Shown: positions 3,632 to 53,691 of the stretch, piece by piece
Layout: each line of letters opens with the position of its first letter
Position numbering within the stretch: the first letter of the stretch is position 1
Source of the DNA: Candidatus Campbellbacteria bacterium
GTDB lineage: Bacteria; Patescibacteriota; Minisyncoccia; Phycocordibacterales; UBA1006
DNA: 64,000 nucleotides
Reading direction: 5' to 3'
NCBI GenBank assembly: GCA_002698305.1
Contig: NZWR01000005.1
Location: 66,047-130,046, forward strand
Made by a program: the position numbers and the translations under genes
The notes under the pieces: generated by a model
The model's input: the letters and a program-made list of their open reading frames with translations, nothing else
Databases searched by the model: none
Told to the model about the DNA's origin: nothing

Positions 3632-5002
3632 ATGTTAATTACATCTATATCAGGTATACGGGGAACCATTGGCGGAACTCCGCATGAAAATCTAACGCCA
3701 GTTGATATTGTAGGGTTTATTTCTGCATACGGGACCTGGCTGCAATCCCGATATTCTTCTCCGCGCGTGGTAATAGGGCGTGATGGGCGAGCTTCTGGGA
3801 ATATGATTCTTGGTATCGCTGTACAAACACTGATAAGTCTAGGGATAGATGTTGTTAATCTTGATTATGCTACTACACCAACGGTTGAGATGGAGGTCAT
3901 TCGAAGAGAGGCAAGCGGCGGTCTTATCATTACAGCCAGTCACAATCCAAAACCATACAATGGAATTAAGATGCTTAACGATAAAGGGGAGTTTCTTTCA
4001 TTAAAAGACGGGGAGTTAATTTTAAATATAAAAAATAAAGGAGACTATAGCTTTGCTGATGTTGATAGTTTAGGTAAAGAAAGTAAATCCTATAATCATA
4101 CAAAAGATCATATAGACGATATTCTGAATCTTGATTTAGTTGACGCTGAACTTGTTCGTTCAAAAAATTATACGGTGTGTGTAGACGCTATTAATTCAGT
4201 AGGAGGTCTTGCGGTTCCGATGTTGCTTAAAAAAATGGGGGTAGAGGTTGTTGGCCTTTATTGTGAGGTCAATGGTGATTTTCAACATGAACCCGAACCT
4301 CTTGAAAAAAATCTCGGAGAACTTATGAGTCTTGTTACTAAAACACATGCTGACCTAGGAATAGCGGTAGACCCAGATGTTGATAGGCTTGTATTAGTGG
4401 ATGAGAAGGGTCAAATAATTAATGAAGAATACGGCATTGTATTAGCTGCTGATTATGTGCTATCACAGACTGCTGGACCAACGGTTTCTAATCTCTCATC
4501 ATCACAGGCATTGGAAGATTTAACTACGCAGTATGGTAAAGAGTACAGCGCATCAGCTGTTGGAGAAAAAAATGTCGTCGAAAAAATGAAGGAAATAAAT
4601 GCTGTTATCGGAGGAGAGGGGAGCGGAGGTATTATTTACCCGGAACTTCATTATGGGCGAGACGCGTTAGTTGGTATTGCATTGATACTGAGTTTTATGG
4701 CAAAAGAAGATACTACTATTTCAACTTTACGTGATAGATACCAAGATTATTTTATGGTGAAAGATAAGCTTGAACTAGAGGATAGAGATAGTATCCCTGG
4801 TTTACTTGATGATTTAGCAGAAAATACTGATGGGCTAGTGTCACGGGTTGATGGCCTAAAAATCTCATTTGAAAATTCATGGGTACATATTCGTCCATCA
4901 AATACAGAACCAATATTAAGAATTATTTCCGAGGCACGAACCGAGACTGAAACTCTTTCTTTGGTTGATAAATATAAAGACCGAATTCTTTCTCTGATGT
5001 AA
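3632..5002 (+). CDS. glmM: Phosphohexomutase (phosphoglucosamine mutase / phosphomannomutase family)
   Basis: Active-site loop TASHNPKPYNGIK and metal loop GIAVDPDVDRL. 456 aa. Substrate assignment is an inference. Confidence 0.8.
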   Translation: MLITSISGIRGTIGGTPHENLTPVDIVGFISAYGTWLQSRYSSPRVVIGRDGRASGNMILGIAVQTLISLGIDVVNLDYATTPTVEMEVIRREASGGLIITASHNPKPYNGIKMLNDKGEFLSLKDGELILNIKNKGDYSFADVDSLGKESKSYNHTKDHIDDILNLDLVDAELVRSKNYTVCVDAINSVGGLAVPMLLKKMGVEVVGLYCEVNGDFQHEPEPLEKNLGELMSLVTKTHADLGIAVDPDVDRLVLVDEKGQIINEEYGIVLAADYVLSQTAGPTVSNLSSSQALEDLTTQYGKEYSASAVGEKNVVEKMKEINAVIGGEGSGGIIYPELHYGRDALVGIALILSFMAKEDTTISTLRDRYQDYFMVKDKLELEDRDSIPGLLDDLAENTDGLVSRVDGLKISFENSWVHIRPSNTEPILRIISEARTETETLSLVDKYKDRILSLM

Positions 5003-5021
5003 TTATGTATAATGGTTTTAT

Positions 5022-5462
5022 ATGAATAAAAATATTCAAAAAGCACGGAAAAACAAAAATGTACGTCTTATTGTCCTTTTGGTTATTATCGCTATTGCTG
5101 CAGGTATGTGGTGGTGGGGTGATAAAACTGACAATAATGTATTAAAAACAGGAGCAATCGTTGCTGGTGGAGCTGCTGGTATTGGAGCTGGACTTGAAGT
5201 AGCAGACAAAGATTTCGACTTGCAAAGATTATGGGAAACAGGGTCACTCAAAAAGTCACTATTGGAACGTGATGCAGAAGGTAACCTTATTAATCTTGAG
5301 CAAATTTGTGATGCACAAGATCAAGGATTCTATGACTATAATTGTGATGATTTTACTTCACAAGAAGAAGCACAGCGCGTATATGAAAAATGTGACACAG
5401 ATGTAAATCGCCTTGATGGTGACAATGATGGAATGGTGTGTGAACATTTACCTCAAAAATAA
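5022..5462 (+). CDS. Membrane-anchored protein with C-terminal Excalibur Ca-binding domain
   Basis: N-terminal TM helix. C-terminus [37 protein letters not shown] matches the Excalibur DxDxDGxxCE pattern. Confidence 0.6.
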
Positions 5463-5471
5463 GAATAAAAA

Positions 5472-5499
5472 AGAGCAGAAGACTGACTTCTGCTCTTTT
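5472..5499 (+). terminator. Intrinsic terminator
   Basis: 10-bp perfect stem agagcagaag / cttctgctct with a 5-nt loop, followed by tttt. Confidence 0.7.
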
Positions 5500-5506
5500 C
5501 TCTGTG

Positions 5507-5588
5507 TGCCCAGGGCGGGGCTCGAACCCGCATGCCTTAGAGGCCACGGCCCTCAACCGTGTGTGTATACCAATTCCACCACCTGGGC
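5507..5588 (-). tRNA. tRNA-Leu(GAG), type II with long variable arm
   Basis: Reverse complement is GCCCAGGTGGTGGAATTGGTATACACACACGGTTGAGGGCCGTGGCCTCTAAGGCATGCGGGTTCGAGCCCCGCCCTGGGCA. Anticodon stem CACGG/CCGTG with loop TTGAGGG, T-arm GCGGG-TTCGAGC-CCCGC. No encoded CCA. Confidence 0.9.
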
Positions 5589-39776: not shown

Positions 39777-40787
39777 TCATTTACTTATAATTGCTTTTTT
39801 ATAGGTATCAAGATGTTCAAGTGCAATTCCTGTTCCACGTGCAACGCAGAACAGTGGATCTTCTACAACATAGGCGCTAACCCCTGTTCTTCTATGAATC
39901 AAATCAGTTAAATTACGTAACTGTGATGTTCCCCCGGTCATAGTAATACCGTTATCAATAATATCTGATGCAAGTTCAGGTGGTACTTGGGCAAGTACAT
40001 CCTTGATTGCTTGAATCATGGTTTTTAATTCTTCATCAATAGCCTTTGTAATTTCGTTGGTCGATATTTTTACCGAACGTGGCAACCCAGTAACATAATC
40101 TCTTCCCTTTATCAGTACCTCAAGCTCTTCATCAAGAGGAATAGCTGAAGCGATTTTAATTTTAATTTTTTCGGCTGTCCGGTCTCCGATGGCAAGATTA
40201 TAGGTCTTTTTGATGTAATCAATAATAGCATCGTCGAGACGACGTCCAGCACATTTTACTGAATTTGAGGCAACAATCCCTCCAAGCGATATTACCGCAA
40301 CATCAATTGTTCCTCCACCAATATCTACAATCATATAGCCATTTGGTTGCTGAATAGAAATTCCTGCTCCAATTGCGGCAAGAATTGGTTCCTTTACAAC
40401 ATAGGCATTCTTGGCTCCTGCTCGGCGTGCAGCCTCGATAACAGCACGACGTTCTGTTGAGGTAATTCCAGCTGGAACAGACAAAAGAACGTCAGGTTTT
40501 AGAAAATTAAACCCTCCTAATGCTTGCTTAAAATAATAACGCAGCATCGTTTCTGTGACGCGGTAGTCAGCAATAACCCCATCTTTCATTGGCCTATAAG
40601 CAACAATTTCATCGGGCGTTCGCCCAATCATTTGTTTTGCTTCAGACCCAACTGCTAGCACCTTGTTATCCTGAATCGATATGGCAACAACTGACGGCTC
40701 ATCCAGAATAACTCCCTTCCCTGGTACAAAGACCAAGATATTTGTTGTTCCAAGATCAATTCCTAGTTTTTTAGTAAACATTCCCAT
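39777..40787 (-). CDS. mreB: Rod shape-determining protein MreB
   Basis: LGIDLGTTNILV, DIGGGTIDVAVISLGG and GITMTGGTSQLRNL are actin-fold phosphate and adenosine motifs. Confidence 0.9.
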   Translation of the reverse strand: MGMFTKKLGIDLGTTNILVFVPGKGVILDEPSVVAISIQDNKVLAVGSEAKQMIGRTPDEIVAYRPMKDGVIADYRVTETMLRYYFKQALGGFNFLKPDVLLSVPAGITSTERRAVIEAARRAGAKNAYVVKEPILAAIGAGISIQQPNGYMIVDIGGGTIDVAVISLGGIVASNSVKCAGRRLDDAIIDYIKKTYNLAIGDRTAEKIKIKIASAIPLDEELEVLIKGRDYVTGLPRSVKISTNEITKAIDEELKTMIQAIKDVLAQVPPELASDIIDNGITMTGGTSQLRNLTDLIHRRTGVSAYVVEDPLFCVARGTGIALEHLDTYKKAIISK

Positions 40788-41032
40788 ATCGCCATACTAT
40801 CATAGCTGGGTTTTTTGAGAATATTTGCTAGGGTATGAAAAACAATAAATTTATGAAATTCAAACATTTTATATTGTGCACTATTTTCAATATACACGAC
40901 TCAGAAAAAGCACCACTTGGAAAAATTGAAAGATGCAGGAGGTGTAAACACGAGAAAATATCTCAGCTATAAAAACACTTTAATAACCTCTGTTTCTTGG
41001 AAATAAATAAAGAAGAAGATGCAGAGAAGAAA

Positions 41033-41061
41033 TAAAAAGCCTCACGAACATGAGGCTTTTT
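41033..41061. terminator. Hairpin with A/T flanks in the mreB-murA intergenic region
   Basis: aaaaagcctca-cgaaca-tgaggctttttt. No annotated gene ends here. Confidence 0.4.
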
Positions 41062-41068
41062 TAGTTTT

Positions 41069-41094
41069 AAAATATAACATATATGTTATATTTT
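41069..41094. promoter_or_regulatory. Perfect 26-bp palindrome, candidate operator for the HTH domain of the downstream gene
   Basis: aaaatataacata|tatgttatatttt is self-complementary at 13/13 positions. It ends 4 nt before the ATG at 41099. Confidence 0.5.
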
Positions 41095-41098
41095 CAGT

Positions 41099-42634
41099 AT
41101 GCAAAAAGATACCTTACTGAAAGAACAAAAAAGAATTGGAACTTTTATTCGGTCCATTAGAAAGCAGCGTGGGATGACTCAAGCTGATTTTGCCAAAGAA
41201 TTAGGTACTGCCCAATCAGCTGTAGCTCGGATGGAGAAAGGAGGTCAAAACTTCTCTACCCAAGAATTAATTAGAATTGGGAATGTATTAGACCACCAAC
41301 TTATTAAACTTCAACGTGAGGAGCGTGATGATTTTATTATTCATGGAGGGAAAAAGCTCAAAGGATCGATAGAAACCAATACCTCAAAAAATGGGGCCAT
41401 GGGACTTATGCATGCAGCCCTTCTTAATAAAGGTACAACAATTCTTCATGGAATCCCTAAAATCCAGGAGGTTTATAGAATCATAGAAATTTTTCAAAGC
41501 ATCGGCGTTAAGGTTGAATGGATTAAAAAGAAAAGTATCAAAATAACCCCTCCAAAGAGGTATAAATTTGAAGATATCAATAAAAAATCTGCTCGTCGAG
41601 TTCGGTCATTTATGATGTCAATTGGACCACTTATTCACCATCTTAAATCATTTGAAATTCCAACAGCTGGGGGATGTAAAATGGGCGAACGTACGATAGC
41701 AGCTCACAGGCACGGTATTGAACAGTTTGGGGTAACGATTACGACAAAAAACTCTGGTTATCTTGTAGAACGTGGTCGGCTTAAACCAGCAGAAATTGTT
41801 ATGTACGAGGCATCTGATACAGCAACAGAAAATATTGTTATTGCTGCTGCTGGTATCCCTGGAACAACAGTTATTCATTTTGCTCAGCAGAACTATATGG
41901 TTCAAGATGTATGTTTTTTCTTAGAGAAACTCGGAGTTAAAATTGAAGGGATTGGTTCATTAAAACTAACTATTCACGGAGTTAAAAATATACATATTGA
42001 TGTTGAACATCATAACAGCGAAGATCCTATTGAATCAATGATGTTTATAGCCTCAGCGATTGCAACAAATTCAAAACTTACCGTTACACGTTGCCCGTAT
42101 GATTTCTTAAAACTTGAACTCCTTAAGTTGAAAAAAATGGGGGTTGAATTTTCATTTTCAGACCACTACACGTCGCGTAATAAAAAAACAAATCTTGTTG
42201 ATGTCACTATTCTAAAGTCAAACAAATTAAAAGCTTTATCAGATAAAATCCATGCTCAACCATATCCAGGGATTAACACTGACAACCTTCCATTCTTTGT
42301 ACCTGTGGCACTTAAAGCAAAAGGAACAACTCTTATTCACGACTGGATGTGGGAAAACAGAGCAATTTATTTCACTGAGCTTAATAGACTTGGTGCATCA
42401 GTCAGACTCGCTGACCCGCACCGCGTATATATCGAAGGAGGTGAAAAACTATCTAATGGTGAATTAGTCTGCCCTCCTGCCTTGCGGCCATCAACCATGC
42501 TATTGGTTACCATGCTGGGGATACCAGGACGATCAATTCTTCGTAATGTATATTCAATCAAACGTGGATATGAAAATATTGTTGAACGATTAAACTCTAT
42601 TGGTGCTGAAATTGAAGAGGTTAAAGAAATATAG
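41099..42634 (+). CDS. murA: XRE-family HTH domain fused to UDP-N-acetylglucosamine 1-carboxyvinyltransferase
   Basis: Residues ~10-70 (IGTFIRSIRKQRGMTQADFAKELGTAQSAVARMEKGGQNFSTQELIRIGNVL) form a Cro/C1-type HTH. The remainder is full-length MurA (IHGGKKLKGSIETNTSKNGAMGLMHAALL, catalytic-loop PTAGGCKMGERT with Cys retained). 511 aa versus about 420 aa for typical MurA. Confidence 0.85.
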   Translation: MQKDTLLKEQKRIGTFIRSIRKQRGMTQADFAKELGTAQSAVARMEKGGQNFSTQELIRIGNVLDHQLIKLQREERDDFIIHGGKKLKGSIETNTSKNGAMGLMHAALLNKGTTILHGIPKIQEVYRIIEIFQSIGVKVEWIKKKSIKITPPKRYKFEDINKKSARRVRSFMMSIGPLIHHLKSFEIPTAGGCKMGERTIAAHRHGIEQFGVTITTKNSGYLVERGRLKPAEIVMYEASDTATENIVIAAAGIPGTTVIHFAQQNYMVQDVCFFLEKLGVKIEGIGSLKLTIHGVKNIHIDVEHHNSEDPIESMMFIASAIATNSKLTVTRCPYDFLKLELLKLKKMGVEFSFSDHYTSRNKKTNLVDVTILKSNKLKALSDKIHAQPYPGINTDNLPFFVPVALKAKGTTLIHDWMWENRAIYFTELNRLGASVRLADPHRVYIEGGEKLSNGELVCPPALRPSTMLLVTMLGIPGRSILRNVYSIKRGYENIVERLNSIGAEIEEVKEI

Positions 42635-48732: not shown

Positions 48733-48759
48733 AAAATACTCACATAGTGAGTATTTTTT
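48731..48759. terminator. Bidirectional intrinsic terminator between convergent genes
   Basis: aaaaa-atactcac-ata-gtgagtat-ttttt. Confidence 0.65.
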
Positions 48760-49501
48760 ATAGGTAATTATGCAGAAATGCTAACTGCTCCTTGGTATTC
48801 GCACCAAGTGATTCTTCTTCAGGTATATCAATTGATGAAATTTCATGCTGTTGATCAAATGCTATCTGAACAAGATCAGTCAAATAGTATTCACCTTGAT
48901 TGTTATCATTTTTAAGTGCCCGCAATGATTGCAGCATCCATTTTTTATCACAACAGAAGATTGCAGGATTAACTTCTCGAATACCAAGCTCAGTATCAGT
49001 AGCATCCTTTGCTTCTACAATTTTTTCTATTTTTCCATCAGCTCCACGTGCGATTCTTCCAAATCCAGAGAAATGTCGCGTGAACAAATCCTCATCGCGT
49101 ATTGTAGCTGTAGCAATAGTAATTGGAGAAATAGTATCTTCATTTGCCTGGGCAAGGCGTTCAATTGTCTCCTGTGAGACAAATGGCATATCAGCATAGA
49201 GAATAATAACGCGGTCAGTCTGCTCTTTTAATTTATCCTCTGCACACATTACGGCGTGCCCAGTACCTTTTTGTTCATCCTGATGCGCATAGGTTACAGC
49301 GTCGCCGAGTGCCTCTATAATCAGCTCTTTTTTGTATCCTACAACAACTACGGGTGGTTTGCTGTATTCGATACTATCGAGAGTAGTGATAACACTTTCA
49401 AGCATGGTCGTCTCCCCTAGTCGCGTCATTGCTTTTGGCAGGTCACTTTCCATACGTGTCCCCTTTCCTGCTGCTAAAATTATGATTTGTGTTTGTTCCA
49501 T
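48758..49501 (-). CDS. Sugar-1-phosphate nucleotidyltransferase equal to the GlmU N-terminal (uridyltransferase) domain only
   Basis: IIILAAGKGTRMESDLPKAM, YAHQDEQKGTGHAV and ILYADMPF match the GlmU pyrophosphorylase domain. The protein ends after about 247 aa with no left-handed beta-helix acetyltransferase repeats. Start is taken at MEQTQIII. Confidence 0.75.
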   Translation of the reverse strand: MEQTQIIILAAGKGTRMESDLPKAMTRLGETTMLESVITTLDSIEYSKPPVVVVGYKKELIIEALGDAVTYAHQDEQKGTGHAVMCAEDKLKEQTDRVIILYADMPFVSQETIERLAQANEDTISPITIATATIRDEDLFTRHFSGFGRIARGADGKIEKIVEAKDATDTELGIREVNPAIFCCDKKWMLQSLRALKNDNNQGEYYLTDLVQIAFDQQHEISSIDIPEEESLGANTKEQLAFLHNYL

Positions 49502-49601
49502 AGATAATGAAAAGCACATTACGTGCTTCTGTGTGTAATTAAGTATAGAAAATAGACCATATACTGCAAGCAGATATCCCAAACAGAGCCACATATAGCA
49601 G

Positions 49602-49673: not shown

Positions 49674-49745
49674 GGTCCCATCGTCTAATGGTTAGGACAT
49701 CAGGTTTTCATCCTGGAAATCGGGGTTCGACTCCCCGTGGGATCA
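49674..49745 (+). tRNA. tRNA-Glu(UUC)
   Basis: GGTCCCATCGTCTAATGGTTAGGACATCAGGTTTTCATCCTGGAAATCGGGGTTCGACTCCCCGTGGGATCA. Anticodon loop TTTTCAT, T-arm CGGGG-TTCGACT-CCCCG, no encoded CCA. Confidence 0.9.
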
Positions 49746-49798: not shown

Positions 49799-49936
49799 GA
49801 TTAAGGCTTTAACGTATGATTTTTTGCCTGCTAGTACTTGCAACTAATCATAAATCAATTATGATATAGATATCTAGGGGTTAGAAAAACCGCTAGGGTA
49901 CTACATCCAAGAGTCGCCTCCATTAGGGGGCGACTT

Positions 49937-50503
49937 TTATTTATTCTTTTGATTTCTAAAATTTAACTTTTTACCCCAAATATCTTCTTGTATCTTCAAC
50001 ACATCTCTGTATCCATGGCCGCCAGTTCTTAATTCTGATGAAATATTATTTTCTGATGAATAAATAAAAACCTTTTTACCCCCGTTTTTAAGGTAATTTA
50101 CAAGTGCTAGGTAATCAGAATCACCTGTAAATAATAACGCTGTATCAAATTGATCCTTCGTATGCATAACATCAAGAGTAAGTTCAACATCCATATCTCC
50201 TTTCTCTTTGATACCAATCCCCTCATCGGTCAATATTTTAATTTGTTTTAATGGCTTTTTTCTTACCACAAAGTTAAGACCTTTTTTAAGATAGGTATAG
50301 AATGAATGTTTTGATGAAACATCGTAATCACGGGTACCATCTTTAGGGTATGCTGTATAGTAATATGCTTTAATGGTATCAGCAGCATGCTCCCTTTTCA
50401 AAAAAGAGATCAATTTTTTATAGTCAAAAAGCATTCCTTTTGCTTGCTGAGCATTCCAAATATTTGATGCATCTATAAAAACATGTACAACGTTGCTCTT
50501 CAT
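49937..50503 (-). CDS. NYN-domain (LabA/COG1432-like, PIN-fold) putative ribonuclease
   Basis: VHVFIDASNIWNA (N-terminal Asp) and ALLFTGDSDYLALVNYLKNGGKKVFIYS (DxD) fit the NYN/LabA active-site pattern. 188 aa. Confidence 0.75.
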   Translation of the reverse strand: MKSNVVHVFIDASNIWNAQQAKGMLFDYKKLISFLKREHAADTIKAYYYTAYPKDGTRDYDVSSKHSFYTYLKKGLNFVVRKKPLKQIKILTDEGIGIKEKGDMDVELTLDVMHTKDQFDTALLFTGDSDYLALVNYLKNGGKKVFIYSSENNISSELRTGGHGYRDVLKIQEDIWGKKLNFRNQKNK

Positions 50504-50541
50504 GCTATTAAGTATATCAAAAAAACTATCTGCAGATAGTT

Positions 50542-53500
50542 TTACTCACTTTCTATATCCCAGACCTCATCGATCTCCTTCATGATGCGGTCGGTATGTG
50601 TCAGTGCATGGATAATTTTATGATAATGCTCGATATCATCAAAACTTAGAGTCCTGTCACGGCGATCTTTGAGCCATTTTTGCGCTGGCTGATAGCCACC
50701 AATATAGAACTCCCATGCCAATTCCGGAACGCCATCAAAATATTGCAGATCGTTAATCCACACTCTCCCGGTTTTATTCTCAATATCAGTCAGTTCAAAC
50801 CCAATACTATTCTTGGTTAAACGGCGTGTAATTTTGTTATCACTTTCTGCATCGCCTGACACAGGATAGCTTGTAATATAATCACTGCGTGAAATATTCT
50901 CAAGAAGATGTAACTGACGAAGCTCAGTTCCTTTTTTAACTAATTCCCAGAATAATTCTTTGGATTCTGGGTATGGTACTCGCGGGAAATCTATCTTCAA
51001 AAATTCTTGATATTTATCTCTATATGATGGGCTGTGTAGCACTGCATAAATATAATCCAAGATATCTTCAGGCGCGGTATCTCCTGTAATTTTACCAATA
51101 TCATCCCAAATTTGCTGGTCAAGATTAGGTACCTTGGTGCCGTCGTTATGATAAAGATAAAGAGGAAATACAGAAGTCGAATCTCCAGCTGAATCTAAAA
51201 CATGAAAATCAGATAATATTTTTGTAATATAAAAATATCCTAAGCTTTGCTGTCTATTAATTCTTGTTGTAATCAATGCGAGATTCTCTTTTTGCACAAA
51301 ATGCTGCATCACATTTTCGCGAAGCCTCCATATTACCTTTGAATCATAATAGAGATATTTATCATCAAATGGTCTATAGGAAACCTTTTGAATGAGATTT
51401 TTATCAACATCAACCTCATCAATATTTTCTAGTAGCCACTTTCCGTAATTTTTTCCAAGGTTGTATTCATTTTTGAATTCAGGCTCTGATGGTTTATTTT
51501 CTTGTACTTTTCTTAATCGTTCATTAATTTCTTCTTTGGTATCAGCAATTGCAAAGCCGTCTCCCATAGTTACAATTCCTGTAACATTAGTTGTAAATAG
51601 CTCTTGTACACCAAAAAATTTTTGATATGCACGCTCTGCCTGATAATCAAATGTATGGAAATAGTAGGCACTTCCTTCTGGATGTACCTCCTCCCAATTC
51701 ATGCTTTGCCAATCGCTGGTATCAAGCTGATGATATTTATCGGCACGTTTTCCATAGAGGTCAGCCCGAAATACGCGACCCAGCTCGTTATCCTGCTTTT
51801 CTCCTGTTTTAATTCCAAAAAAAATACTTACTCCTGTTTTAATGTCAAAAATATTTTCATCTTTTCCGCCGTTTGGCGTGGTTTCTTTTTTATTCGCATT
51901 ACCGTGTAAATCCAATACATAAATCTCATCAAAGGTTTTTAATAAATGCCAGCGCATGCCACGGAATGTTGGATTATCAAGATAACCGTGTGAAGTAATG
52001 TAGTTTACAATTCCTTTTCCAGTATTAGCAATCTGTGATTCTGCTAGTGATATAAATTTAACATAATCATCATTTAACCAATGTTTTCGTTCTTGTAATT
52101 TTTGTTTAGCTCCTGGTTCGATTTTATATTTATTAACAAGTTCTTTTGCAAAATCAGTTTCGTTCGAACTTACTCCACTGTATGGAGGATTTCCCATCAC
52201 AACCATAATTGGCAGTTCTGATTTGATTCGGCCCGCCTCAGCTGCCTCTTCAGTCAACCAGCGGCTCATCAGTATTTCAAGAGGTCGTTGTTTGTCATTT
52301 GCAGCCTCAAGACTGTTTGTAAGCCAGACTGATAATCGGTCATTTCCCGCATAACCAAACTCGCGCAAGGTAATTCCTAATTTCATATGGGCCATAGTGT
52401 ACGATGCCATCATCAGTTCAAATCCATGGAGTCGTGGTAGAAGATGCTTGCTAACATAACTATTCCATGCCCCTGCATCATTTTTGTAGTCATTATGGAT
52501 ATGACGAATAACCTCATTAAGAAATGTTCCTGTCCCTGTTGCTGGATCAAGAATCTGAACCTGGTGGATATCGCGCTTTGCTTTTTTAATACCGTCTTTA
52601 GTACGATTGTCTTCCATATCGGTCGCAAATTCATGTGAAATTTTATTCCTACCAGCTAATCCATCTGTAAGATTAAATTTATCTTTCAAGATCTGGTCAA
52701 CACTACGCACCATGAATGAGACAACCGGTTCAGGGGTATAGTACACACCACGTGAAGCCCGTAATTTTTGATCATATTCTGCAAGGAATGTTTCGTAAAA
52801 ATGAAGAACCGGATCTTTTTTCTTTTTCTCAAACTCTTGGTGCATGATTTTTTTCACATCGGTTGCTAGATATGCTTCTATCAGAGAATCTACCATCCAC
52901 GCAATCTTGTTATCATAATCTGTTCCTGCAACATGACCAAAGAATTTCTTGAGTAATGGATTGGTTGAAGGCAACAAATCGTGAGCCTCATACCGTGAAA
53001 AATTATGGAGGCTTTCATCGAAATAACGTGCTACAAATAGACCATACACCAAAGTTTGTGCATACATATCTGCAAAATCCTCATAGGAAAGATCATGAAT
53101 TAAAACTTCTTTAAAAGCACCATATTGTTGAGCAATGGTTGATTTTTTATTTTCTGTAAGAGATGCTAATGCGTTAGCACGCAACAGCTGTCCTTTTGCA
53201 GCCATAATTTCTGCTAAACGTTTAGCTGATTTAATCGTCTGAGGAGTAGATTTAAGGTAGTCCTTAATCAAAAGAAGTTTTGATGCTACAACATCCTCAT
53301 TATATTGCCTAAACCTGTTGTCCTTAAAATCTATAAGAGAAAATTCTGATACGAGACCTGTTTCATTAATGATTTGAAATTCATGGTAATTTGTTAGAAG
53401 AATTTTTCCAAATGCATCAACATAGCGTTGTGCTTGCGATTGAACTTTTTTATCATTAAGATCTACTGTAATATCCTTACATTCAGCGTAGGCTATTGGT

Positions 53501-53691
53501 ACACCACTCTTCTTAAAAAGAAAGTCTGGCGCATTTCCTCCGGTATAAGCAGGTTCATTAATAACCTCGATTTCATCTGATAATGATTCAACAAGCATTT
53601 GAAATGCAGATCTATAGGCATGCTCACGAGCATTTCCTGAATTATGAAGTGATTGTATAGATAAGAAGTAATCCTGAATATTTGCTTTCAT
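50542..53691 (-). CDS. Single-polypeptide restriction-modification enzyme (Type IIG/ISP-like): N-terminal PD-ExK nuclease-like domain + gamma-class N6-adenine DNA methyltransferase + C-terminal specificity domain
   Basis: MTase motif I QILDPATGTGTFLNEV lies before motif IV VVMGNPPYSG. N-terminus NAPDFLFKKSGVPIAYAECKD fits PD-X13-ExK. C-terminal AVLHSPSYRDKYQEFLKIDFPRVPYP resembles the type ISP/YeeA-type C-terminal domain. No helicase or ATPase motifs seen. 1049 aa. Confidence 0.8.
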   Translation of the reverse strand: MKANIQDYFLSIQSLHNSGNAREHAYRSAFQMLVESLSDEIEVINEPAYTGGNAPDFLFKKSGVPIAYAECKDITVDLNDKKVQSQAQRYVDAFGKILLTNYHEFQIINETGLVSEFSLIDFKDNRFRQYNEDVVASKLLLIKDYLKSTPQTIKSAKRLAEIMAAKGQLLRANALASLTENKKSTIAQQYGAFKEVLIHDLSYEDFADMYAQTLVYGLFVARYFDESLHNFSRYEAHDLLPSTNPLLKKFFGHVAGTDYDNKIAWMVDSLIEAYLATDVKKIMHQEFEKKKKDPVLHFYETFLAEYDQKLRASRGVYYTPEPVVSFMVRSVDQILKDKFNLTDGLAGRNKISHEFATDMEDNRTKDGIKKAKRDIHQVQILDPATGTGTFLNEVIRHIHNDYKNDAGAWNSYVSKHLLPRLHGFELMMASYTMAHMKLGITLREFGYAGNDRLSVWLTNSLEAANDKQRPLEILMSRWLTEEAAEAGRIKSELPIMVVMGNPPYSGVSSNETDFAKELVNKYKIEPGAKQKLQERKHWLNDDYVKFISLAESQIANTGKGIVNYITSHGYLDNPTFRGMRWHLLKTFDEIYVLDLHGNANKKETTPNGGKDENIFDIKTGVSIFFGIKTGEKQDNELGRVFRADLYGKRADKYHQLDTSDWQSMNWEEVHPEGSAYYFHTFDYQAERAYQKFFGVQELFTTNVTGIVTMGDGFAIADTKEEINERLRKVQENKPSEPEFKNEYNLGKNYGKWLLENIDEVDVDKNLIQKVSYRPFDDKYLYYDSKVIWRLRENVMQHFVQKENLALITTRINRQQSLGYFYITKILSDFHVLDSAGDSTSVFPLYLYHNDGTKVPNLDQQIWDDIGKITGDTAPEDILDYIYAVLHSPSYRDKYQEFLKIDFPRVPYPESKELFWELVKKGTELRQLHLLENISRSDYITSYPVSGDAESDNKITRRLTKNSIGFELTDIENKTGRVWINDLQYFDGVPELAWEFYIGGYQPAQKWLKDRRDRTLSFDDIEHYHKIIHALTHTDRIMKEIDEVWDIESE

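Follow-up and report, generated by a model that had tools for sequence, protein, structure and literature searches.

The 64,000-nucleotide stretch analysed here (contig NZWR01000005.1, positions 66,047 to 130,046, of Candidatus Campbellbacteria bacterium assembly GCA_002698305.1; hereafter the window) encodes a UDP-N-acetylglucosamine (UDP-GlcNAc) 1-carboxyvinyltransferase, MurA, which carries an XRE/Cro-C1-type helix-turn-helix (HTH) domain at its N-terminus and whose start codon is closely preceded by a perfect palindrome (Table 1). The organism is a tiny, uncultured member of the Patescibacteria. Fosfomycin acts on MurA, the entry point of peptidoglycan synthesis. A sequence-only reading of this locus had described an HTH joined to a complete MurA in one open reading frame (ORF), the only murA in the window, with the catalytic motifs GGCKMGERT (Cys193) and SKNG (Lys97), a palindrome that overlaps -10-like hexamers, and a terminator-like hairpin further upstream; all of these elements were recovered where it had placed them. 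The fusion is borne out by the Pfam domains and by the single 511-residue frame, and neither a second murA nor a second copy of the HTH was found in the 64 kb.

Pfam places HTH_3 at residues 17-65 (E = 1.6e-11; 44.5 bits against a cutoff of 23), with a further match to HTH_31 (34.1 bits against 27), and EPSP_synthase at residues 82-498 (E = 2.7e-45). In the AlphaFold2 (AF2) model, a monomer with a mean predicted local distance difference test score (pLDDT) of 89.5, the MurA fold is confident and the HTH consists of four helices (residues 3-23, 28-35, 39-47 and 54-64), the second and third of which make up the HTH pair; linker residues 71-74 fall below a pLDDT of 50. The closest solved relatives of the HTH are the dimeric operator binders PezA, HipB, C.BclI, SinR and the 434 repressor (E-values of 1e-3 to 1e-2). 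The identical protein at NCBI (P0001) is annotated from a CTG codon located six codons later, a start that still includes the HTH, and bears the label MurA only; proteins of the family are named in public databases merely 'MurA' or 'helix-turn-helix domain-containing protein'.

Chains of MurA in the Protein Data Bank (PDB) matched residues 77-509 with E-values from 1.5e-54 to 1e-39, the best of them (1.5e-54) over residues 80-509, and AroA chains were matched with E-values of 1e-7 or weaker. Among the profile models, NF006873, an NCBIfam MurA subfamily, was passed (333.9 bits; cutoff 297), the strict equivalog TIGR01072 (322.9 bits; cutoff 392.7) and NF009470 (234.8 bits; cutoff 552) were failed, and the aroA model TIGR01356 gave 60 against 287. 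Since the TIGR01072 score lies below its cutoff, the protein is, by its sequence, a divergent MurA of Patescibacteria type, for which the subfamily-level model alone is passed. It shares 31% identity with E. coli MurA, whose residues K22, N23, R91, C115, R120, D305, R331, R371 and R397 correspond to K97, N98, R169, C193, R198, D395, R421, R463 and R489, respectively; the numbering of the E. coli reference sequence agrees with the known residues. Across an alignment of 42 family members, each of the nine, which serve catalysis or binding, is either invariant or conserved to at least 90%, which supports the earlier description of an apparently active enzyme. Judged by residue conservation only, the protein would be a catalytically competent MurA.

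The fusion is real and common in Paceibacteria. The HTH and EPSP_synthase domains occur together in 120 of the 120 best homologues (61-100% identity), which were drawn from NCBI, JGI, ENA and Logan and derive from many independent assemblies. With each species represented by one genome, a scan confirmed 236 stretches encoding a relative, and the best 80 of these, 79 with upstream DNA, are the species loci considered below; in all 80 the match begins within the first 25 query residues, i.e., in the HTH. In all, about 160 related loci were compared. Fused members were recovered down to about 31% identity by an exhaustive profile-free search, and a 246-member cluster of fused homologues (48% identity) belongs to the cultured actinomycete genus Nonomuraea. 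A phyletic check of HTH-MurA fusions, as proposed by the sequence-only reading, thus found the same architecture in hundreds of independent assemblies, which rules out a frameshift, two separate genes or a start codon downstream of the HTH.

One of the actinomycete homologues (L081; Nonomuraea sp. NEAU-A123, JAHFZZ010000002.1, gene 4001-5530) is a catalytically intact HTH-MurA with 48% identity to the window protein. Its gene stands in an operon, 16 nt behind a Formyl_trans_C/ECH gene, with an AMP-binding enzyme and an integrase encoded nearby. Possibly the gene is a paralogue that belongs to a small locus of biosynthetic or mobile nature. The presence of a homologue in Nonomuraea hints at transfer between Patescibacteria and actinomycetes.

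Table 1. Features of the HTH-murA locus in the window, and pseudoenzyme loci of its relatives
Feature	Location	Strand	Remarks
HTH-murA gene	41099..42634	+	511 amino acids (aa), one uninterrupted open frame
XRE/Cro-C1-type HTH domain	41132..41302	+	aa 12-68; Pfam HTH_3, HTH_31 and others
Predicted recognition helix TAQSAVARME	41207-41236	+	aa 37-46
Linker after the HTH	aa 65-76		about 12 aa, low confidence in the AF2 model
MurA (UDP-GlcNAc 1-carboxyvinyltransferase) domain	41327..42625	+	aa 77-509
Perfect 26-bp palindrome AAAATATAACATA/TATGTTATATTTT	41069..41094		no spacer; ends 4 nt before the ATG
Predicted operator core TATAACATATATGTTATA	41073..41090		central 18 bp; local variant of the family consensus TATATCATATATGATATA
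Extended -10-like element TGtTATATT	41084..41092	+	right half-site plus 2 nt
Terminator-like hairpin	41034..41061	both	11-12 bp stem, A-run before, T-run after
mreB	39777..40787	-	divergent; 311-nt spacer to murA, behind the two-way terminator
Pseudoenzyme locus	L164 4624-7503
Pseudoenzyme locus	L166 3768-6740
Pseudoenzyme locus	L168 95-5003
Pseudoenzyme locus	L167 3685-6554

The palindrome and its association with the HTH

Both the position and the symmetry of the palindrome reported by the sequence-only reading are exact. It is the longest zero-loop palindrome in the window, and an arm of 13 was reached in none of 100 windows simulated with a first-order Markov model, where the largest arm was 12 and occurred twice. 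The outer four A/T pairs on each side (AAAA/TTTT; 41069-41072 and 41091-41094) are lineage-specific and not conserved in relatives. The 18-bp core TATAWCATATATGWTATA, by contrast with these pairs, was present with at most two mismatches upstream of 77 of the 79 species loci, down to 58% protein identity, with A at position 5 and T at position 14 taken as matches. When the loci were aligned on the site, information was high over exactly 18 bp and almost zero in the flanks. The core is the sole match in the window at three or fewer mismatches and scores 20.9 bits with a position weight matrix (PWM), against 9.7 bits for the next best site in the window (49851), which resembles an ordinary promoter; further operator copies indicative of a regulon were thus not found in the window at that threshold. 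In 577 kb of loci plus window, 87 sites were counted, nearly all of them at murA, with only about ten further, weaker sites.

The same site forms an extended -10 element, in agreement with the overlap claimed before: in the family alignment, the right half-site together with the two following bases reads TGnTATAnT. The distance between core and ATG peaks at 8-11 nt (48 of 107 loci) and amounts to 8 nt in the window, and the intervening bases are unconserved and lack a Shine-Dalgarno sequence. Since the ATG stands only 8-11 nt past the core, leaving no room for a Shine-Dalgarno sequence, the mRNA is probably leaderless, with transcription predicted to begin on the A of the ATG (41099) or directly beside it. 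A generic sigma-70 scan for -35/-10 pairs called no promoter at the palindrome, the -35 being weak; it was the family alignment that brought out the extended -10.

Of 106 sites, 16 have flanks that are symmetric past the core by at least three extra pairs; 4.8 would be expected, and none of 2000 permutations gave more than 14. In about 15% of the loci (among them L019, L072, L058, L030, L061, L011, L037 and the window) the palindrome extends 3-12 bp past the core, with flank sequences that differ from locus to locus. This flank symmetry, including the AAAA/TTTT of the window, possibly reflects extra contacts, DNA structure or a template-switch 'correction' of quasi-palindromes, which can yield flank symmetry neutrally.

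The association between site and fusion was assessed in an independent metagenome sample that had been seeded with unfused MurA relatives and returned a mix of both kinds, the HTH being classed by a hidden Markov model built from the family alignment. The site occurred at three or fewer mismatches in 37 of 43 fused and in 0 of 32 unfused murA genes (Fisher p = 2e-15). Four more fused genes of this sample have weaker matches with four to five mismatches, at least two of which are recognisable GC-type variants. Two further unfused relatives stand behind tRNA genes, and the palindrome was not found there; a separate HTH of the same family was not found within 900 nt of unfused murA genes. The co-occurrence of palindrome and fusion, for which the sequence-only reading had proposed a check, was thus seen in the species loci as well as in the metagenome loci. 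Fused and unfused genes are interleaved in a neighbour-joining tree of the MurA domains (no bootstrap; about 24 parsimony changes), and because of this interleaving the HTH-site association is unlikely to go back to one ancestral event.

Recognition helix and operator vary together. In the 42-member alignment, the helix consensus TSQSAVARME is near-invariant wherever the site is invariant. The helix TSQSS[IV]PRME pairs with TATCTC/GAGATA half-sites in 16 of 17 loci. Of 12 loci with the helix TTQS.., 9 have TATAGC/GCTATA half-sites, which accompany TSQS in 2 of about 75; all of these counts are inflated by shared ancestry. An Asn variant of the helix pairs with GGTAT. The window itself combines the helix TAQSAVARME with TATAAC/GTTATA. 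Changes in the operator are symmetric, affecting both half-sites, and the three separate variant classes behave alike.

Four distant fused relatives of the window protein (P0128, P0130, P0132 and P0143; 34-40% identity) have lost the Cys loop with the equivalent of Cys115 as well as the equivalents of R91 and R120, the last of which is kept in P0132. Because these catalytic residues are lost, the four proteins cannot, by all that their sequences indicate, be MurA enzymes. They retain a MurA-like domain, including the equivalents of N23, D305 and R331, and the HTH as well, and the same operator accompanies them (TATATCATATATGATATT, TATAACATATATGCTATA, CATATCATATATGATATA and TATATCATATAGGATATA). 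Three of the four pseudoenzyme loci also contain an intact murA that is separate and unfused; together with murB or a Mur ligase gene, it lies divergently across the operator, and ddl or Mur ligase genes follow the pseudoenzyme gene. In L167 (P0132), operator sites precede NUDIX and NTP_transferase genes and the fused gene follows. The family therefore shows three states, namely bifunctional proteins with the site, regulator-only proteins with the site, and enzyme-only proteins without it. Because these three states coexist, the HTH-operator pair appears to be a working mur regulatory module, and the pseudoenzyme loci, hard to explain otherwise, would be the strongest single evidence for it; they fit the expectation for a genuine regulatory role that persists after catalysis is lost.

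Predicted autorepression and its alternatives

We consider it likely that the window encodes a bifunctional MurA which represses its own promoter by occupying the 18-bp core. The N-terminal XRE-type HTH would bind this palindrome, most likely as a dimer; the right half-site would be part of the extended -10 of the gene's own promoter, and the bound protein would block RNA polymerase, such that the enzyme would repress its own synthesis. The predicted result is that the first committed step of peptidoglycan synthesis is subject to negative feedback. In 34 of 72 loci the upstream neighbour is murB (Pfam MurB_C and FAD_binding_4) in divergent orientation, and 22 of these 34 show a mirror-image arrangement, with the murB start codon 8, 10 or 11 nt away from the opposite edge of the core. 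In such relatives, about half of the species, one site would control both genes, and the palindrome would be the heart of a compact bidirectional promoter and also the operator that shuts this promoter off. Besides the gene's own promoter and the divergent murB, predicted sites are scattered beside murC, Mur ligase, ddl, NTP_transferase and NUDIX genes. In the window, only murA adjoins the site, and the two-way terminator would insulate mreB; murB was not found in the 64 kb.

DNA binding might, in addition, be modulated by the ligand state of the MurA domain, a speculative extension that we regard as possible, at less than even chances. Sensing of substrates becomes more plausible because the pseudoenzymes keep a MurA-like domain alongside the HTH and the operator. 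On the same speculative level, UDP-MurNAc (UDP-linked N-acetylmuramic acid) would be the most attractive ligand, because it is known to inhibit MurA by feedback and is the product of MurB, whose gene is a frequent partner. As a feedback inhibitor, UDP-MurNAc locks MurA in a closed, 'dormant' complex (PMC12077105). Somewhat more doubtful is the complete scheme of a ligand-gated autorepressor that would sense UDP-MurNAc/UDP-GlcNAc (or phosphoenolpyruvate) via the open-to-closed transition known from MurA, alter its operator occupancy in response, govern a minimal mur regulon and have split repeatedly in evolution. That regulon would consist of murA and murB, with murC, murE, ddl and nucleotide-sugar genes in some lineages, and the family would have divided into pure enzymes, in which HTH and operator were lost, and pure regulators, in which catalysis was lost and the operator kept.

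Several points weigh against autorepression by the fused protein. Binding, dimerisation and repression rather than activation are, like the leaderless start, features that we infer from sequence. The AF2 model shows a four-helix HTH on a floppy linker, in which a dimer interface is not obvious, and MurA is usually described as monomeric. The palindrome amounts to two back-to-back extended -10 elements, and its conservation may partly reflect promoter function, especially where murB is divergent. Shared ancestry confounds the co-variation of helix and operator. Four fused genes (L015 and L020 among the species loci, L088 and L108 in the metagenomes) have no recognisable site within 200-300 nt upstream, and in the Nonomuraea locus L081 an AT-rich palindromic operator was not found within 4 kb of the gene; since the recognition helix of the latter is the Asn variant, this result is uninformative rather than contradictory. 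The protein has an alanine, Ala461, at the position of D369 in E. coli MurA. Finally, the view of the genome is that of the 64-kb window, and another murA may lie outside it.

The main rival explanation holds that the palindrome is only a compact bidirectional promoter for leaderless murB and murA genes, read by RNA polymerase alone, with the HTH having another DNA target or none and co-occurring with the site as inherited baggage. It gains from the fact that each half-site plus 2 nt reads TGnTATAnT, from the start codons at 8-11 nt from the core on both the murA and the murB side, and from the second-best PWM match of the window (49851), which resembles an ordinary TTGCAA-N17-TATGAT promoter. 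Full symmetry is nevertheless kept without a divergent gene, both in the window, where a terminator and a 311-nt spacer intervene, and in seven DUF3048 loci with a co-directional upstream gene, including a 32-bp perfect palindrome in L058. Unfused murA genes need promoters too, yet the site was found in 0 of 32, and the full motif is nearly absent elsewhere in the 577 kb. Symmetric operator variants, moreover, track recognition-helix variants, unlike what a sigma-factor element would do, and the pseudoenzyme copies keep the HTH together with the site. On balance, a promoter alone is unlikely. Very unlikely is a reading in which the fused protein of the window acts mainly as a regulator, with the MurA domain as sensor, and an unfused MurA elsewhere in the genome catalyses the reaction. 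Distant relatives show just such a division, the visible part of the genome amounts to 64 kb, and the TIGR01072 score is under its cutoff; yet all nine residues checked are present here and conserved in the close family, and it is in the pseudoenzymes that such residues are lost. The close unfused relatives P0122-P0124 (52-58% identity), without an HTH, share these residues and likewise have alanine at the D369 position, and because of this agreement the MurA type of the window is suggested to be a working enzyme. Small Patescibacteria genomes, in addition, rarely keep paralogues.

A slimmer chance still is given to the palindrome being the operator of a separately encoded regulator, with the fused HTH serving protein-protein contact or a non-specific nucleoid tethering of MurA. 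XRE domains are abundant and some act in protein interaction, which would suit an AF2 model without a dimer interface. Against this stand the dependence of the site on an HTH fused to murA in cis, maintained over many apparent independent gains and losses, the residues of the recognition helix, near-invariant where the site is invariant and changed where it is changed, and the failure to find a separate HTH of the same family within the 900 nt around unfused genes. The least probable of the readings is that the element acts as a nucleic-acid structure, either a hairpin in the 5' leader RNA or a DNA cruciform, that occludes the start codon region or pauses transcription. Symmetric compensatory changes would also fit base pairing, the flank complementarity is over-represented (16 of 106 sites with at least three extra pairs against 4.8 expected), and the RNA fold of 41062-41101 reaches -7.2 kcal/mol (z = -2.7). 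The stem, however, is almost all A-U and weak, and the palindrome lies outside the mRNA if transcription starts from the overlapping -10. Conservation concerns the sequence over 18 bp and not pairing alone, a mere structure leaves the strict link to the HTH unaccounted for, and the flank symmetry could have arisen neutrally by template-switch correction. Autorepression by HTH binding at the core thus remains the preferred reading of the locus.

Neighbouring genes and further sites

The terminator-like hairpin proposed upstream of the palindrome is real and scores on both strands; two terminator-like sites were found against 0.2 expected in shuffles. A search of 40700-41200 against Rfam returned just sub-threshold terminator-like matches near the hairpin and no known RNA element, and over the whole window only two tRNAs, both elsewhere, were found at the gathering threshold. 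mreB is the neighbour of the fused gene in the clade of the window, and relatives with mreB upstream have a shorter mreB-murA spacer, of about 87 nt in L009, than the 311 nt of the window; the extra segment looks like a lineage-specific insertion. This extra spacer DNA (40788-41033) contains a 45-aa ORF (40835..40972), followed by the two-way terminator.

L015 and L020, the two species loci without a recognisable site, share their recognition helix with L019 and L050, both of which carry the operator. Secondary operator-like sites with two mismatches each occur in L041 (1613-1873), L054 (480-764) and L070 (3656-3920), and a similar one in L029 (about 1745-2030). In these four loci the site comes with a -35-like TTG and a Shine-Dalgarno sequence and stands before a gene for a conserved protein of about 75-84 aa with the motif H[VI]VLKD..GK[IM]V; the site of L041 also adjoins a divergent murC. 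Homologues of this small protein are encoded in L052 and L059 without an obvious site, and the gene is absent from the window. In L022 (1064-1932), the secondary operator-like site TATCTCATATATGGTATA precedes a gene for a 276-aa protein, which from its motifs we take to resemble the YfiH/PgeF (peptidoglycan editing factor) family.

Elsewhere in the window, the second-longest perfect palindrome, AAAACTATCTGCAGATAGTTTT (50522-50543; arm of 11), includes CTGCAG; it is flanked by the stop of a methyltransferase-like ORF of 1049 aa (50542..53691) and the start of an ORF of 188 aa (49937..50503), both on the minus strand. The stretch 49838-49935, after a tRNA gene (49674-49745), consists of the TTGCAA-N17-TATGAT promoter-like sequence followed by about 75 nt that end in a GC-rich hairpin and a T-run. 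The stretch could encode a small RNA or act as a leader, and has no Rfam match. The neighbouring gene (48758..49594, minus strand) resembles a GlmU-type nucleotidyltransferase.

Relation to known systems

A self-regulating HTH-MurA appears to be undescribed so far: neither the fusion nor the operator motif was mentioned in the literature searched, whose coverage left out most subscription journals. If the predicted autorepression is true, a MurA that doubles as the transcription factor of its own gene would bring in a further level of control besides the post-translational ones and would extend the class of 'trigger enzymes' beyond cofactor and amino-acid metabolism. If the ligand-gated scheme also held, peptidoglycan precursor synthesis would gain its first described circuit of transcriptional feedback, and the Patescibacteria their first reconstructed regulon. 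The biology of these bacteria is almost wholly inferred from genomes, and a directly testable case of gene regulation among them is rare. The system is tractable, with a 511-aa protein, a defined 18-bp predicted site and a homologue in the culturable Nonomuraea. Natural controls are at hand in enzymes without the HTH, in regulators of the pseudoenzyme type and in operators whose variation is matched by that of the helix. The progression that leads from a bifunctional protein to either an enzyme or a regulator alone would offer a clean case of the sensor domains of transcription factors arising from enzymes.

The arrangement of the site is that of XRE repressors such as 434, SinR, HipB, PezA and the restriction-modification controllers, where a two-fold symmetric site of 14-18 bp lies over the promoter of a gene that is probably leaderless or has a short leader. 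Those proteins, however, are small stand-alone regulators or antitoxins that dimerise by a fifth helix or a C-terminal domain, whereas the HTH of HTH-MurA has four helices and a short linker to a 47-kDa enzyme. The known controls of MurA comprise feedback inhibition by UDP-MurNAc (PMC12077105), ClpCP/ReoM/IreB with PASTA-kinase control and activation by CwlM (PMC7286690, PMC4946905). They share with the predicted autorepression the target and the logic, a limit on flux at the first committed peptidoglycan step, but act post-translationally, through inhibition, proteolysis or partners, whereas HTH-MurA would act on transcription, and by the enzyme itself.

In its working principle, HTH-MurA would belong to the trigger enzymes that carry a fused DNA-binding domain, as do BirA, NadR, PutA and RbkR. 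BirA is likewise an essential enzyme with an N-terminal HTH and a palindromic operator over the promoter of genes of its own pathway, its ligand state coupling metabolism to transcription (PMC5397151, PMC4016012), and, as with unfused MurA, other lineages have versions (group I) that lack the DNA-binding domain. The two differ in that the HTH of BirA is winged and that of HTH-MurA of XRE type; in that classic BirA represses the bio operon and not its own gene, at which HTH-MurA is predicted to act; in that dimerisation of BirA is driven by the corepressor biotinoyl-AMP, whereas none is known for HTH-MurA; and in the pathway, which is cofactor synthesis for BirA and cell wall synthesis for HTH-MurA. 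In PutA, NadR and the archaeal RbkR, too, a DNA-binding domain is joined with at least one functional enzyme domain, and the genes under its control are those of the same pathway (PMC5397151). Their DNA-binding domains are of ribbon-helix-helix (PutA), HTH (NadR) and winged HTH (RbkR) type, as opposed to the XRE domain and enolpyruvyl transferase fold of HTH-MurA; none of them has this fold or belongs to peptidoglycan synthesis, and the known fused trigger enzymes are all found in vitamin, cofactor or amino-acid metabolism (PMC5397151). The closest parallel in kind of evidence is RbkR, which was defined by the same sort of comparative genomics as used here, i.e., conserved palindromes of 16-20 bp, autoregulation in 36 genomes and lineages in which the DNA-binding domain was lost; binding assays later confirmed it (PMC5397151).

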